From: Acaryochloris marina S15
GTDB lineage: Bacteria; Cyanobacteriota; Cyanobacteriia; Thermosynechococcales; Thermosynechococcaceae
Reading direction: 5' to 3'
NCBI RefSeq assembly: GCF_018336915.1
Contig: NZ_CP064923.1
Coordinates: 3,090,001-3,122,000 of the forward strand
Length of the DNA: 32,000 nucleotides
Notes under the pieces: generated by a model
Told to the model about the DNA's origin: nothing
What the model saw: only the letters and a program-made list of their open reading frames with translations
Database searches by the model: none
Shown: one piece after another, positions 3,967-8,553 of the stretch
Layout of the letters: every line of letters begins with the position of its first letter
Numbering within the stretch: position 1 is the stretch's first letter
Position numbers and translations under genes: made by a program

Positions 3967-4062
3967 ACAGTGGATTCTGGTCGGATTTGTACGCATAGCG
4001 TCTCCGATAGGAGATACCGACATCTTTCTGCACAAGGCAGATGCTTTGCCAATTACATATAG
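3967..4062 (-). pseudogene. tRNA-like gene with T-loop module and degenerate 5' half
   Basis: Perfect T stem GTCGG/CCGAC enclosing TATCTCCTATCGGAGACGCTATGCG+TACAAAT. There is a possible anticodon hairpin TCTG-CCTTGTG-CAGA. I found no convincing acceptor pairing or D arm. Confidence 0.35.
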
Positions 4063-4135
4063 AAGGAGTGGTAGGATTTGAACCTACACAGACCGATTTA
4101 GAAGATCGGTGCCCCATCCTTTAGGCGACACTCCC
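4063..4135 (-). tRNA. tRNA-Arg(UCU)
   Basis: Acceptor GGGAGTG/CACTCCT (G1-U72); anticodon stem CCGAT/ATCGG with loop CTTCTAA; T arm GTAGG-TTCAAAT-CCTAC. Confidence 0.85.
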
Positions 4136-4140
4136 AGGTT

Positions 4141-4230
4141 TGGTAGGGGATCTGGGTTATGATCCCAGCCGTCTAGACTAATCTGGTCCCCTCGCTTATA
4201 AGGCGAAGCCGCTCACCAGAGCTATCCCCC
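4141..4230 (-). tRNA. atypical tRNA-like gene with UAU anticodon (Ile AUA reader), long extra arm, non-canonical T-loop
   Basis: Acceptor GGGGGAT/ATCCCCT followed by encoded ACCA; D stem GCTC/GAGC with a 4-nt loop; anticodon stem TTCGC/GCGAG with loop CTTATAA; extra arm of about 21 nt; T arm CTGGG-ATCATAA-CCCAG, which lacks TTC. Confidence 0.5.
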
Positions 4231-4235
4231 ACTGA

Positions 4236-4357
4236 TGGTCCCTGTAGGATTCGTACGCGAAGCAGCTCCGTTGACGAAGCCACCCCAAAGGGGCTTGGAG
4301 CTACCTATGGCCACCTTTTTGTAAGAAAGGCACTCTCCCAGGCTGAGTTACAGGACC
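4236..4357 (-). tRNA. tRNA-Val(UAC)-like with enlarged T-loop module
   Basis: 5' acceptor GGTCCTG; D stem ACTC/GAGT; anticodon stem CCTTT/AAAGG with loop CTTACAA. T stem (A)TAGG/CCTA(C) encloses TAGCTCC-[27-nt inner hairpin]-GGAGCTGCTTCGCG+TACGAAT. The 3' acceptor strand has one extra G. Confidence 0.55.
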
Positions 4358-4361
4358 ACAA

Positions 4362-4432
4362 AGCGAGTGGTGAGATTCGCACTCACGCGCTGGCGTTGGC
4401 ACTGCCAGATGCTACTGCTACATCACACTCGC
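4362..4432 (-). tRNA. tRNA-Gly(GCC)
   Basis: Perfect acceptor GCGAGTG/CACTCGC; D stem GATG/CATC; anticodon stem TGGC(A)/(C)GCCA with loop GTGCCAA; T arm GTGAG-TGCGAAT-CTCAC. Confidence 0.7.
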
Positions 4433-4436
4433 CCAA

Positions 4437-4517
4437 AGCGGATAACGAGATTTGTTCGCGAAGCGTCTCCTCACATCAAGAGTTTAGAAGCCTCTGATGC
4501 TGGCACACCATATCCGC
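4437..4517 (-). tRNA. tRNA-Arg(UCU)-like with short T-loop module
   Basis: Perfect acceptor GCGGATA/TATCCGC; anticodon stem AGAG/CTCT with loop CTTCTAA. T stem GTGAG/CTCGT (two G-U pairs) encloses GAGACGCTTCGCG+AACAAAT. The D arm is irregular. Confidence 0.5.
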
Positions 4518-4582
4518 AAAAGGTTTATATCCGTTAGGTTTTATGCACCTAAGTTATTTAGACCTCAATGATTTCGCACCTA

Positions 4583-5098
4583 TTAATTCGGCTGTTCAGC
4601 TATTTTTAAGTAGGTGTTATAAGTCAAGTCGCCAAAGCAGGCAAAGATAACTTTGGTCATAAATTGATTTTCCTGCAAGAAATTGAGGGTCGTTTCAAAG
4701 GCGATCTGACAGGCTTGGTCTATCGGATAGCCATAGACTCCGCAACTAATGGCAGGAAAGGCTATGGCTTGAATCCCATTGCCAACTGCTAACTCTAAGC
4801 TACGTTGATAGCAGGCTTGCAACAAAATCGCTTCATTGGCTCCCCCTCCTCGCCAAATAGGACCAACGGTGTGAATCACATACTTGGCTGGCAGTTGATA
4901 CCCTTTCGTGAGTTTGACATGGCCTGTTTTACAGCCTTTAAGCATTCGGCATTCTGCCAAAAGTTGTGGCCCGGCTGCGCGATGAATTGCTCCATCGACT
5001 CCACTCCCGCCAAGCAATGACTCATTAGCTGCATTGACAATCGCATCTACCTTAAGGGTTGTGATATCAGTTTGGACAATTTCGATTCGAGCATTCAT
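4583..5098 (-). CDS. macrodomain protein (YmdB / O-acetyl-ADP-ribose deacetylase-like)
   Basis: 171 aa with hallmark macrodomain motifs: [49 protein letters not shown]. It is embedded between tRNA genes on the same strand. Confidence 0.85.
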
Positions 5099-5163
5099 GG
5101 ATTAGCCCCTTAGGGAATTCCCTTGTGAGAAATATCATCATTCTGTACCTAAATAATGGAACA

Positions 5164-5260
5164 AGCTGGTGACAGGGGTTGTTCGCGAAGCGTCTCCGAA
5201 GGAGAAACCTGCAACCTATTGTTTACAAGACAATTGCTCTAGCCATTGAGCTGCACCAGC
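5164..5260 (-). tRNA. tRNA-Thr(UGU)-like with 24-nt T-loop module
   Basis: Perfect acceptor GCTGGTG/CACCAGC; D stem GCTC/GAGC; anticodon stem ATTGT/ACAAT with loop CTTGTAA. T stem GCAGG/CCTGT encloses TTTCTCCTTCGGAGACGCTTCGCG+AACAACC, a 31-nt loop. Confidence 0.65.
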
Positions 5261-5275
5261 TCAAGTTTTGGTATT

Positions 5276-5352
5276 TGGTAGCGGAGGTGAGAGTTGCACT
5301 CACGGATGTGCAGCTTATGAAACTGCCGAGCCCCTCTTGCTCCATCTCCGCT
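5276..5352 (-). tRNA. tRNA-Met/Ile2(CAU)
   Basis: Perfect acceptor AGCGGAG/CTCCGCT followed by encoded ACCA; anticodon stem GCAGT/GCTGC with loop TTCATAA; T arm GTGAG-TGCAACT-CTCAC. Confidence 0.7.
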
Positions 5353-5457
5353 ATGAGGGTTGGGATATTACATTGCTCTAGAGTGGTTGCCAATTTTGGA
5401 GTTGTTTTAGGAGGTGGAGGATGATTTGCGATCGCAAAACTCATACCTACCGTGAAC

Positions 5458-7630: not shown

Positions 7631-7704
7631 TCCGGGTGGCAGGATTTGAACCTGCGACATCCTGGTCCCAAACCAGGCGCGCTACCAAACTGCGCTACAC
7701 CCGG
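7631..7704 (-). tRNA. tRNA-Pro(UGG)
   Basis: Acceptor CCGGGTG/CACCCGG (C1-G72, typical of bacterial Pro); D stem GCGC/GCGC; anticodon stem CCTGG/CCAGG with loop TTTGGGA; T arm GCAGG-TTCAAAT-CCTGC. Confidence 0.9.
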
Positions 7705-7709
7705 ATATC

Positions 7710-7787
7710 TGGTACTCCCGACAGGAGTTGAACCTGCAAAAACTCTGTCTCTCAAACAGAGGCGTTTACCAATTTCGCCACGGGAGC
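7710..7787 (-). tRNA. tRNA-Leu(GAG), class-I architecture (no long variable arm)
   Basis: Acceptor GCTCCCG/CGGGAGT followed by encoded ACCA; Leu-type D arm TGGCGAAATTGGTAAACGCC; anticodon stem TCTGT/ACAGA with loop TTGAGAG; only 6 nt between the anticodon and T stems; T arm GCAGG-TTCAACT-CCTGT. Confidence 0.7.
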
Positions 7788-7791
7788 ACAA

Positions 7792-7865
7792 TACTCCTGG
7801 TGGGAGTCGAACCCACAACCTCTGGTTTCTAAAACCAGCGCCTCTTCCGGTTGGGCTACAGGAGT
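7792..7865 (-). tRNA. tRNA-Leu(UAG), class-I architecture
   Basis: Perfect acceptor ACTCCTG/CAGGAGT with A73; 3-bp D stem GCC/GGC with an 11-nt loop; anticodon stem CTGGT/ACCAG with loop TTTAGAA; 5-nt variable region; T arm GTGGG-TTCGACT-CCCAC. Confidence 0.7.
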
Positions 7866-7917
7866 ATAAAAGGAATTTAGAGTTAGAAATTCAAAGATGA
7901 GTTCTTTAAATTTCTAG

Positions 7918-7991
7918 TACTCCTGGTGGGAATCGAACCCACAACCTCTAGTTTTTGAGACCAGTGCCTCTTCCAATTGGGCTACAGGAGT
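7918..7991 (-). tRNA. tRNA-Leu(CAA), class-I architecture
   Basis: Paralog of 7792-7865 with the same acceptor and T stem. Anticodon stem CTGGT/ACTAG with loop CTCAAAA; 5-nt variable region. Confidence 0.7.
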
Positions 7992-8057
7992 AAATTGAGA
8001 AATCAGGCAGGCCTGACAGGTTAACGGAAACAAGGGGTGAACTCACCCTATTCCCGA

Positions 8058-8131
8058 TACTCCTGGTGGGAGTCGAACCCACAACAAACTGTGTTTAAGA
8101 CAGTTGCGTCTGCCAATTGCGCCACAGGAGT
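8058..8131 (-). tRNA. tRNA-Leu(UAA), class-I architecture
   Basis: Same acceptor ACTCCTG/CAGGAGT; D arm TGGCGCAATTGGCAGACGCA (GCG/CGC stem, Leu-like); anticodon stem ACTGT/ACAGT with loop CTTAAAC; variable region TTGTT; T arm GTGGG-TTCGACT-CCCAC. Confidence 0.7.
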
Positions 8132-8187
8132 AGTAAAAGGAGGCGTGAATAGACCCAGGCGATAGGTTTTGTTTCAACGGCCTCCAA

Positions 8188-8259
8188 CTGTCCCACCAGG
8201 ATTCGAACCTAGAATTTCGCTGTCAAAGAGCGAAGTGTTGCCAGTTACACCACAGGACA
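8188..8259 (-). tRNA. tRNA-Gln(UUG)
   Basis: Acceptor TGTCCTG/TGGGACA (U1-A72) with G73; D stem GTGT/ACAC; anticodon stem TCGCT/AGCGA with loop CTTTGAC; T arm CTAGG-TTCGAAT-CCTGG. Confidence 0.85.
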
Positions 8260-8270
8260 ATAAAAGATAG

Positions 8271-8342
8271 ATGCCGAGGTAGGATTCGCACCTACACCCT
8301 CCTGATTCAGAGTCAGGCGACTTGCGATTCGTCCACTCGGCA
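8271..8342 (-). tRNA. tRNA-Gln(CUG)
   Basis: Perfect acceptor TGCCGAG/CTCGGCA (U1-A72); anticodon stem CCTGA/TCAGG with loop CTCTGAA; T arm GTAGG-TGCGAAT-CCTAC. Confidence 0.8.
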
Positions 8343-8348
8343 AAGAAT

Positions 8349-8424
8349 TGGCTGCCCCGGCAGGGATTGAACCTGCGACCGTTCGCTTAACAGGCGACCG
8401 CTACTACCACTGAGCTACAGGGCA
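8349..8424 (-). tRNA. tRNA-Asn(GUU)
   Basis: Acceptor TGCCCTG/CGGGGCA followed by encoded GCCA; anticodon stem GTCGC/GCGAA with loop CTGTTAA; T arm GCAGG-TTCAATC-CCTGC. Confidence 0.85.
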
Positions 8425-8431
8425 ACGACAG

Positions 8432-8553
8432 CTCCCCAGGTCGGTTTTGGTCGCGAAGCATCTCCGAATGAGAAACTGGCGACCTCCTGCACTAAGCCCT
8501 TCGGGTAGGCTGCGCCAACACACAGGCGCTACTACCTCTGAGCTACCGGGGGA
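8432..8553 (-). ncRNA. aberrant tRNA-like gene: 8-nt anticodon-position loop, long extra arm, T-loop module
   Basis: The 5' part TCCCCCGGTAGCTCAGAGGTAGTAGC is tRNA-like. Stem GCGCC/GGCGC closes the loop TGTGTGTT. An extra hairpin follows around CCCGAAGGG. The module TTTCTCATTCGGAGATGCTTCGCG+ACCAAAA is present, but the T-stem and acceptor registers are ambiguous. Confidence 0.4.

Follow-up and report, generated by a model that had tools for sequence, protein, structure and literature searches.

What is one and the same run of 24 nucleotides (nt) doing in the T-loops of several tRNA-like genes of a cyanobacterium? The genes lie in a stretch of 32,000 nt of Acaryochloris marina S15 (contig NZ_CP064923.1, positions 3,090,001 to 3,122,000 of the forward strand), called here the window, and an earlier note made from its letters alone had pointed to a structured module shared by six of them, with three options for its nature: a small bacterial tRNA intron resealed by a co-encoded ligase, a permanent expansion of the T-loop, or a mini mobile element directed at T-loops. 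Judged by comparison with related sequences, the module is quite probably a small dispersed repeat of 24 nt composed of two hairpins, a non-autonomous mobile or copy-and-paste DNA element lodged in a dispensable tRNA array. Comparison loci are given below by their L numbers, and A. marina, where named, is the comparison and not the window.

With at most one mismatch, GGAGNYGCTWYGCG occurs six times in the window, always on the minus strand (3992, 4256, 4457, 5184, 7468 and 8452); the expectation from shuffles is 0.14 and six were reached in none of 100 shuffles, which bears out the sharing of a module by six tRNA-like genes. ARAGORN calls none of the six hosts, Rfam gives partial or sub-threshold tRNA matches for two only, and the module matches no Rfam family except tRNA. 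Where precisely does it sit? Hand-drawn cloverleafs and ortholog alignments place it in the T-loop in every case, as had been claimed, though not directly after the 5′ strand of the T stem, since T54 and N55 precede it. Alignments with orthologs in eight other arrays (L254, L263, L295, L311, L341, the Nostoc PCC 7120 and Nostoc C052 plasmid arrays, and Kovacikia) give a clean 24-nt insertion between T55 and C56, with which the Acaryochloris relatives agree, and empty T-arm sites all read GGTT↓CRA, the arrow marking the point of insertion. In RNA sense a host therefore runs 5′ T-stem strand, T54, N55, module, C56 to N60, 3′ T-stem strand; of the seven final nucleotides earlier assigned to the loop, the last five are T-loop and the leading AA or TA belongs to the element. 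Nor is GCTTCGCG the invariant core it was taken for: it is a hairpin of 3 base pairs (bp), YGC-NNN-GCG (GCTATGCG in one copy), which covaries elsewhere (CAC/GTG, GGC/GCC). The hosts and copies in the window, scored in bits where a covariance model built from a curated alignment was applied, are as follows.

5164 to 5260, minus strand: tRNA-Thr(UGU) host, otherwise intact by hand-drawn cloverleaf; removal of 24 nt in silico restores an ARAGORN Thr(tgt).
5182 to 5205, minus strand: 24-nt module TCTCCTTCGGAGACGCTTCGCGAA between T55 and C56 of Thr, lineage-specific; a 24-column gap against orthologs, 41.7 bits.
4236 to 4357, minus strand: tRNA-Val(UAC) host; removal of 48 nt restores an ARAGORN Val(tac).
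4254 to 4301, minus strand: Val T-loop module (GCTCC...GGAGC TGCTTCGCG TA) with a second copy within its first hairpin loop; a 48-column gap against A. marina.
4273 to 4296, minus strand: the nested 24-nt copy AAGCCCCTTTGGGGTGGCTTCGTC, of the same two-hairpin plan with other stems (GCCCC/GGGGT, GGC/GTC).
7445 to 7543, minus strand: tRNA-Lys(UUU) host, with A19/U56 instead of G19/C56, and A55 and U58.
7466 to 7489, minus strand: 24-nt module GCTCCTTCGGAGCCGCTTCGCGTA in the Lys(UUU) T-loop, from the covariance model and strain comparison.
4437 to 4517, minus strand: decayed tRNA-Gly(UCC) derivative with a 4-nt D-loop deletion, identified by an ortholog series.
4455 to 4469, minus strand: truncated module remnant GAGACGCTTCGCGAA; against L350, an 11-nt deletion took T54, T55 and the 5′ half of hairpin 1; 26.6 bits.
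3967 to 4062, minus strand: tRNA-Cys(GCA)-derived pseudogene, its anticodon loop down to 5 nt.
3990 to 4014, minus strand: 25-nt module TCTCCTATCGGAGACGCTATGCGTA in the T-loop of the Cys derivative, common to A. marina and L357.
8432 to 8553, minus strand: tRNA-Phe(GAA)-derived pseudogene with two 24-nt insertions, seen as two 24-column gaps.
8450 to 8473, minus strand: 24-nt module TCTCATTCGGAGATGCTTCGCGAC in the Phe T-loop, 32.7 bits.
8495 to 8518, plus strand: reverse-orientation copy AGCCCTTCGGGTAGGCTGCGCCAA in the anticodon loop of the Phe derivative, 25.2 bits, E 8e-4.
3678 to 3701, minus strand: weak diverged copy (ATTCC TTA GGAAA TGC GAT GCG AA) just 3′ of the last tRNA-like gene, 20.2 bits, E 0.013.

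The empty Thr site reads GCAGGTT↓CRACT in the orthologs of seven arrays and of four Acaryochloris relatives, and the filled one in the window GCAGGTT, TCTCCTTCGGAGACGCTTCGCGAA, CAACC. A. marina and CCMEE 5410 have an empty Val site (GTAGGTT↓CGAAT), and the 27-nt inner hairpin described in the Val module is indeed a hairpin insert, which turns out to be a second, nested copy of the same element (30.8 bits at 4270 to 4296); the same pair is found in L352 and, more degraded, in L350 and L357. The gene at 4437 to 4517, formerly read as Arg(UCU), derives from Gly(UCC) and has decayed: its L354 ortholog is intact and has no module, the L350 one has a full module, and there are deletions in A. marina, L352 and the window; the anticodon went from UCC to UCU in the window only, and no tRNA call follows excision. 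The Cys orthologs of A. marina and L243/L295 retain a CTTGCAA anticodon loop. The two Phe gaps were measured against the intact Phe(gaa) of A. marina, L350, L358 and the A. thomasi clade, and a Phe-like gene in L245 has a similar reverse copy at the same place in the anticodon loop. Even the weak copy at 3678 to 3701 is conserved in A. marina (L347, 13518 to 13544, 26.3 bits). Within the window, excision in silico regains a recognisable tRNA for Thr and Val only, the two hosts already described as otherwise intact; Lys(UUU), whose cloverleaf pairing is kept as was also stated, has no ARAGORN call even after excision.

What kind of unit is it? It consists of two variable nucleotides, hairpin 1 (typically NCUCC-UUC-GGAGN), hairpin 2 (YGC-NNN-GCG) and a closing A-A or U-A, in all 24 nt, or 25 with a 4-nt loop. 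Hairpin 1 occurs as TCTCC/GGAGA, GCTCC/GGAGC, ACTCC/GGAGT, TTTCC/GGAAA, GCCCC/GGGGT and CGGC/GCCG, and hairpin 2 as CGC/GCG, TGC/GCG, CAC/GTG and GGC/GCC. In a hand-curated alignment of 16 distinct copies 91% of cells are paired and five of eight pairs have changes on both sides; the covariation score, the percentage paired and the both-sides counts were each reached by none of 500 shuffles, further pair types by four of the 500, and controls with the pairing slid along gave 32–53%. An exact search of metagenome and viral sequences with the 19-base core pattern CTCCTTCGGAGNNGCTTCGCG gave 101 metagenome loci in 87 distinct contexts; the pair that flanks CTCC/GGAG is Watson-Crick in 72 of these independent contexts, with four pair types, and the 3′ neighbour of the element is C followed by G or A in 63. 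Covariation of the outer pair, which had been taken as an argument for RNA structure, is thus real and shows selection on a folded single strand, whether RNA or DNA; but it is equally to be expected of a hairpin recognised in single-stranded DNA and so is no specific argument for an RNA function. Target-site duplication was considered on account of suggestive TA...TA flanks and dropped, as TT...AA and AA...AA flanks do not fit. A loose structural descriptor (hairpin plus YGC-N3-GCG) had 626 matches in 1.9 Mb of GC-rich control loci and was replaced by the covariance model.

Does the module come and go? Orthologous pairs that are filled in one strain and empty in another, with a clean 24-nt difference, exist for Thr, Val, Phe, Gly(UCC), Gln(UUG), Leu(UAG), Ser(GCU) and Lys(UUU), and filled stand against empty sites even between strains whose array-encoded ligases are 88–96% identical. 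The Thr and Phe insertions are in the window only. The Val module with its nested copy is in the window, L352, L350 and L357 and absent from MBIC11017 and CCMEE 5410, and the Lys(UUU) module is in the window, MBIC11017 and L350 and absent from the closest relative, L357 (ligase 96% identical), and from CCMEE 5410 (L358). A. thomasi RCC1774 alone has a copy, a variant one, in Gln(UUG); the proposition that A. thomasi has the ligase but no module was refuted by this copy, which a check of the gaps between tRNAs brought out. Older insertions sit in decaying hosts: the Gly(UCC) and Cys derivatives, and Val in L352, with two acceptor mismatches, and in L357, where the 3′ T-arm is deleted. Such a trajectory is to be expected where a dispensable gene is inactivated by an insertion. 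Module-free tRNAs of the window are mostly 97–100% identical to those of A. marina (range 88–100%), the Cys and Phe derivatives are 83–84% identical and aligned spacers 83%. To call all six hosts simple pseudogenes was rejected as a blanket statement, given the conservation of Lys(UUU) and the otherwise undamaged Thr and Val.

Is the T-loop its only home? It is not, since copies also lie in HIP1 sites, heptamer repeats, other repeats and coding regions, and in reverse in anticodon and variable loops. The idea of a mini mobile element is therefore upheld as to mobility, by filled and empty sites, nesting, strain differences and some 87 contexts, and fails as to exclusive targeting of T-loops. 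The covariance-model search proposed earlier was run and found more copies, including outside tRNAs. Four copies lie in HIP1 sites (for instance GCG, ATGCTCCTTCGGAGCCGCTTCGCG, ATCGC), nine cases involve CAAAACT heptamer repeats, found also in Leptolyngbya PCC 6406 and a Stenomitos metagenome-assembled genome, seven lie directly 3′ of a CCCTTCGGG hairpin, and the element also occupies the centre of a longer palindromic repeat, GCGATTCCC...GAATCGC. In L245, positions 2783 to 2809 hold an in-frame 24-nt copy inside an HNH gene (2649 to 3155), which adds eight residues (YSGGVASP) relative to the HNH protein of the window, and positions 3286 to 3312 a copy within the tblastn match (3215 to 3598) to the alr0857-family protein of the window; in L364, 1499 to 1525 lies in the annotated 3′ end of the coding sequence of a Chroococcidiopsis CDF transporter. 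In Kovacikia the variable region of Arg(ACG) holds a copy in reverse. The covariance model finds an intergenic copy on pCC7120alpha of Nostoc PCC 7120, a plasmid whose HIP1 sites hold 24-nt two-hairpin inserts of the same plan with different stems (CACC/GGTG); the array of Anabaena 7120 has no copy of the element. Plasmid matches were to cyanobacterial plasmids of six genera and one Aphanizomenonaceae record, and the taxa with copies include Acaryochloris, Leptolyngbya PCC 6406, Stenomitos, Kovacikia and Chroococcidiopsis. Viral contigs had no match to the specific 19-base pattern, hence no phage link. A looser pattern, GGAGNNGCTTCGCGNNCNA, with 14 specified bases, had at least 120 matches, mostly chance, of which L053, L116 and L046 were informative.

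Across all arrays examined there are 25 T-loop copies. Excision in silico restores an ARAGORN tRNA in 15 of them, with 13 identities: Gly(GCC), Gly(UCC), Thr, Leu(UAG), Glu(UUC), Lys(UUU), Asn, Met, Ser(GCU), Gln(UUG), Val, Cys and Pro. In T-arms the element lands at T55↓C56 in the near-universal GGTT↓CRA; elsewhere its usual 3′ neighbour is likewise C[G/A], and the flanks of copies outside tRNAs, T[T/A]↓C[G/A], are similar to T-arm sites. T-loops of tRNA arrays make up about 10% of the distinct metagenome contexts, the arrays being only a few kb per genome, and the element either prefers or tolerates them. Array tRNAs are also broken at other positions by different small palindromic repeats, at L345 5830 to 5939 (a plasmid of Tolypothrix PCC 7601), L295 6088 to 6190 and L343 6036 to 6135; one such repeat, TTCGCGTAGAGTCTCCCTTCGGGAGACTCTACGCGAA, is placed in an Arg(UCU) anticodon arm, and a family TA-CCC-TTC-GGG-AAGCAAGCTA stands in reverse in the Arg(ACG) variable region, the very site at which Kovacikia has its reverse copy of the 24-nt element.

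To what known class might such a repeat be assigned? Elhai and colleagues are said to have described, in 2008, the small dispersed repeats (SDRs) SDR4 to SDR6, especially SDR5, of Nostoc punctiforme and its relatives, and SDRs are reportedly associated with heptamer repeats. By secondary description, SDRs share with the present element a size in the 21–27 nt range, hairpins, dispersal, nesting and presence or absence at orthologous sites. SDR5 is given as a repeat of about 21 nt of heterocystous cyanobacteria (bioRxiv 10.64898/2026.06.24.733823) that inserts precisely after the third nucleotide of HIP1, GCG↓ATCGC (PMC4390886); the element, at 24 nt against the 21 quoted for SDR5, enters HIP1 at the same point, a likeness at the level of description. 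According to PMC5861425, SDRs were not found outside Nostocaceae, whereas the element is present beyond that family, which widens the range and is no argument against the mechanism; and repeated insertion at 55/56 of array-tRNA T-loops is a feature without description in the SDR literature as far as searched. By these analogies the element would belong to, or closely resemble, the known SDR class. With REP and REPIN sequences mobilised by RAYT (TnpA-REP, of the HUH-Y1 type; PMC3116915, PMC6006769) it has in common that it is very short, hairpin-forming and non-autonomous, with covarying stems, and occasionally within genes, but unlike them it has a sharply defined insertion point inside a functional RNA gene. 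Neither a GTAG/CGTC head nor inverted doublets are visible in the copies listed, and there is no Y1 transposase or RAYT among the scanned array-adjacent open reading frames of the window or the Pfam annotations of related loci. As the searched literature has no account of T-loop insertions in these arrays, what is apparently new, as far as that literature shows, is position-exact insertion at T-loop 55/56 in at least 13 tRNA identities of L-arrays, and a range well beyond Nostocaceae.

How would a dispersed repeat come to accumulate there? The target would be a sequence or hairpin-loop present in every T-arm, together with relaxed selection on accessory array tRNAs. These duplicate the housekeeping tRNAs and, being dispensable, would let insertions survive and accumulate unpurged, whereas from an essential tRNA gene the same insertion would disappear. 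Conservation and covariation of the hairpins suggest that a folded single strand is recognised, as in hairpin-dependent HUH/Y1 transposases, by a putative enzyme of that kind. Within an array copies probably also pass between T-arms by local re-insertion or short-patch gene conversion, since the subtypes are grouped by array: in the window Lys and Val both have GCTCC/GGAGC between TA...TA flanks, and Thr, Phe and the Gly-like gene have TCTCC/GGAGA, while every L245 copy has ACTCC/GGAGA. As a rule the host would cease to function as a tRNA gene and would then decay.

Several observations weigh against a mobile repeat. Mobility is deduced from comparative presence and absence only, with no mobilising enzyme or transposition intermediate identified; all 25 T-loop copies are in the tRNA sense orientation, which also fits selection at the RNA level; and the flanks are unlike those of a simple insertion, T55 being often A and A58 of Lys being U. 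Moreover, the Acaryochloris copies are all within the array (eight of eight covariance-model matches in the 32-kb window fall in 3677 to 8519), the A. marina flanks have no copies, no Acaryochloris plasmid record matched at blastn sensitivity, and spread within Acaryochloris may have been by gene conversion rather than transposition. Might there then have been no transposition in this genome, but one ancestral T-loop insertion copied between T-arms by short-patch gene conversion or template switching via the GGTT...CRANNCC flanks? Besides confinement to the array, that possibility, which we hold to be real though doubtful, would account for subtypes that cluster by array (Lys and Val in the window; Thr, Gly-like and Phe; L245), for the T55-to-A change that accompanies the module into Val, and for the mosaic anticodon arm of the Phe derivative, which resembles the L245 arm. 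However, the homology that T-arm flanks supply is only 4–7 bp long, other cyanobacteria clearly have members of the family at unrelated, non-homologous sites, and the reverse copy in the Phe anticodon loop of the window is impossible by conversion between T-arms.

Further points of the same adverse kind come from genes that look kept. The module-bearing Lys(UUU) is 96–98% identical among three lineages (96% between the window and A. marina copies) against 83% for spacers, P about 1e-4, with its module unchanged in all three and with few substitutions, all structure-preserving; and two Met-like orthologs, in L245 and L311, share one module subtype, and the three stem pairs in which they differ are all compensatory. 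Some interrupted genes may still make a selected RNA. Are these, then, permanent T-loop expansions? If so, Lys(UUU) of Acaryochloris and the Met-like genes of L245 and L311 would give stable RNAs in which the 24 nt stay in place and make a three-way junction of the elbow, and the products would act as altered tRNAs, decoys or regulators. As well as the conservation just described, the window Lys allele has a matched tertiary pair 19:56 (A19/U56), and a cloverleaf with two hairpins is energetically reasonable at −28.5 kcal/mol against a minimum free energy of −32.4. Among the Lys(UUU) genes of Acaryochloris (window, L357, L358, L347, L350 and L349) the pair 19:56 covaries, G19/C56 against A19/U56, and module-bearing alleles all have A55 and U58, module-free ones U55 and A58. 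However, A19/U56 also occurs in the module-free alleles of L357 and L358, which weakens the change from G19:C56 to A19:U56 as proof of selection after insertion; the distributions of module and 19:56 pair are phylogenetically incompatible and so imply recombination, or loss with restoration of U55 and A58, and conservation may mean no more than recency or recombination. As for the Met-like modules, a locally active subtype could have inserted recently and independently in each gene, a TCC loop being found in another L311 copy too. The elbow of G18-ψ55 and G19-C56 is used by RNase P, the CCA-adding enzyme and the ribosome; an insertion at 55/56 disrupts it, and most other hosts decay. Altogether, we regard stable T-loop-expanded RNAs from these few genes as unlikely; for most copies the idea of a functional expansion lacks support, and Lys(UUU) and the Met-like genes, with preserved cloverleaf pairing, are what is left of it as candidates.

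The other proposal for an RNA-level role, the intron, turns on the genes among which the modules lie, and these are as follows.

3700 to 9415, minus strand: long tRNA gene array of the cyanobacterial L-array or trn-operon type, about 30 tRNA or tRNA-like genes with three protein genes interspersed.
5990 to 7291, minus strand: ATP-dependent RNA ligase with an N-terminal tRNA-binding OB domain and an Rnl2/DraRnl-like nucleotidyltransferase (Pfam PF01588 and PF09414).
5458 to 5880, minus strand: conserved protein of 140 amino acids (aa), between the ligase and macro genes, 463 homologs.
4583 to 5098, minus strand: macro-domain protein of the O-acetyl-ADP-ribose deacetylase type (Pfam E 1e-46; NCBIfam NF001664 221 bits, over the cut-off).
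10064 to 10582, minus strand: HNH endonuclease gene upstream of the array (Pfam HNH).

ARAGORN counts 22 tRNAs in the array and Rfam 21, so that with more than 20 clustered tRNA genes in conserved order and an HNH gene upstream, a gene known to be conserved upstream of L-operons (PMC8421152), the locus is of the L-array kind. An alr0857-family gene is likewise upstream, and the neighbourhood (PriA, two-component genes, HNH, alr0857, array, ligase, 140-aa gene, macro) is syntenic with A. marina MBIC11017. In the upstream HNH gene, tRNA order and embedded RNA-repair genes the locus is like the cyanobacterial L-arrays and the trn operon of Anabaena PCC 7120 (PMC8421152, PMC4758250), which are known to contain pseudogenes too; neither paper tells of T-loop insertions (the term T-loop occurs 0 times in PMC8421152). 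The ligase product matches the NCBIfam and PHROG RNA ligase entries (E 8e-48), is 88% identical to the ligase of A. marina MBIC11017 and has 1277 homologs, mostly cyanobacterial. The ligase, 140-aa and macro genes are kept with the array across the A. marina clade; in the A. thomasi clade the ligase is accompanied by RtcB and a MazEF or PIN module.

Could the module be a small bacterial tRNA intron, its 24 nt excised at 55/56 and the halves rejoined by the array-encoded tRNA-binding ligase or by RtcB? Small T-arm introns are known in tRNAs of Archaea and Cyanidioschyzon, where they are removed by a splicing endonuclease that recognises a bulge-helix-bulge and by RtcB, and the present genes have in common with them a short insert in an otherwise canonical tRNA gene and an RNA ligase gene nearby. 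With the insert precisely removed in silico, Thr, Val and 13 further copies do become canonical tRNAs, no T-loop copy departs from the sense orientation, the Lys(UUU) and Met-like hosts retain cloverleaf pairing, and, in addition to the ligase of the Acaryochloris arrays, RtcB with a MazF or PIN nuclease gene is beside the arrays of the A. thomasi clade. However, the host is bacterial and there is neither a bulge-helix-bulge nor another known splice-site geometry: both junctions open onto a three-way junction of the T-stem, hairpin 1 and hairpin 2, so that they flank two independent hairpins with no helix joining the boundaries (3-nt bulges around a 4-bp helix being the form looked for), and the two boundaries have no common sequence. 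Copies in HIP1 sites, heptamer repeats and protein genes, or reversed in tRNAs, are where splicing would be senseless; several hosts decayed after insertion, which is unexpected if the insert is removed; excision of older copies would leave non-canonical T-loops (UACAUCC or UAUAUCC for Lys); and the available sequence of module-bearing arrays of other genera has no homolog of the ligase, macro or 140-aa gene. Group I introns, which sporadically interrupt tRNA genes as the element does, among them cyanobacterial tRNA-Leu(UAA) and tRNA-fMet, lie in the anticodon loop and have a catalytic core (P3–P9) of more than 200 nt, which 24 nt in a T-loop cannot form, and Rfam gives no intron match to the module even at E up to 5. 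The ligase itself is of the type that seals nicks between 3′-OH and 5′-phosphate, which fits RNA repair, and ligases of L-arrays have already been linked to tRNA cleavage induced by stress (PMC8421152). A resealed intron is thus without positive evidence and we rate it as highly improbable.

Ligase, 140-aa protein and MacroD-type macro domain form a three-gene cassette within the array (4583 to 7291, minus strand) that looks like an RNA end-healing or repair set, and for the nick-sealing ligase and the macro domain the simpler reading is a part in the stress-linked tRNA repair that has been proposed for the surroundings of L-arrays (PMC8421152). Pfam and NCBIfam scans gave no family match for the 140-aa protein; its AlphaFold model is all-helical with a pLDDT of 95 and has no PDB neighbour at E < 1, so that it was dropped as a clue to splicing, a confident fold without a PDB match being uninformative. 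Its homologs are from cyanobacteria and one Gemmataceae, with invariant His/Trp motifs W-T-H-E-A-H-L-R-V-G-L-W-H and G-Y-H-E-T-I-T.

There is little likelihood in our estimation that T-loop-interrupted array tRNAs such as Lys(UUU) and the Met-like genes are kept by selection for functional or processed RNAs, but what would it mean? Were the 24 nt removed by a bacterial endonuclease and the array-encoded ligase, it would be the first protein-dependent tRNA splicing in Bacteria; were they retained, T-loop-expanded tRNAs would have a new role under translational stress; and bacteria that tolerate or process an insertion in the T-loop would in any case be a major surprise for tRNA biology. The interest of a small dispersed repeat, the reading we prefer, is different. 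SDR-type elements are among the smallest mobile DNAs, and tRNA arrays give dozens of near-identical targets with clean pairs of empty and filled sites, from which the target (GGTT↓CRA), the unit, the rules of orientation and the nesting can be read directly, so that the SDR mechanism becomes testable. Such insertions also explain why tRNA finders miss genes in cyanobacterial tRNA arrays and many of the pseudogenes recorded there.

The array has other features of its own. At 4141 to 4230 (minus strand) is a 90-nt tRNA, Ile(UAU) by ARAGORN and apparently with a long extra arm, which is 100% identical to the A. marina copy; both its length and its anticodon are atypical for a bacterial tRNA-Ile. 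ARAGORN does not see the tRNA-like gene at 3794 to 3875 (minus strand), to which Rfam gives a tRNA-Sec-like score of 39 bits, short of the gathering score, which is 47; visual inspection gives it a UGA anticodon with a long variable arm, which makes a gene of the Ser(UGA) type probable. A near-perfect 44-nt palindrome (CTAACAGATCAATGGAGAGG...CCTCCATTGATCTGTTAG) occupies 7577 to 7626, in the interval from Pro(UGG) to the Lys(UUU) host; the matching spacer of A. marina is about 420 nt and does not align. Lastly, the MBIC11017 array lacks, at the corresponding place, the second Met(CAU) of the window (9071 to 9144, minus strand; 71 gap columns in the alignment), an instance of gene gain or loss within the array.

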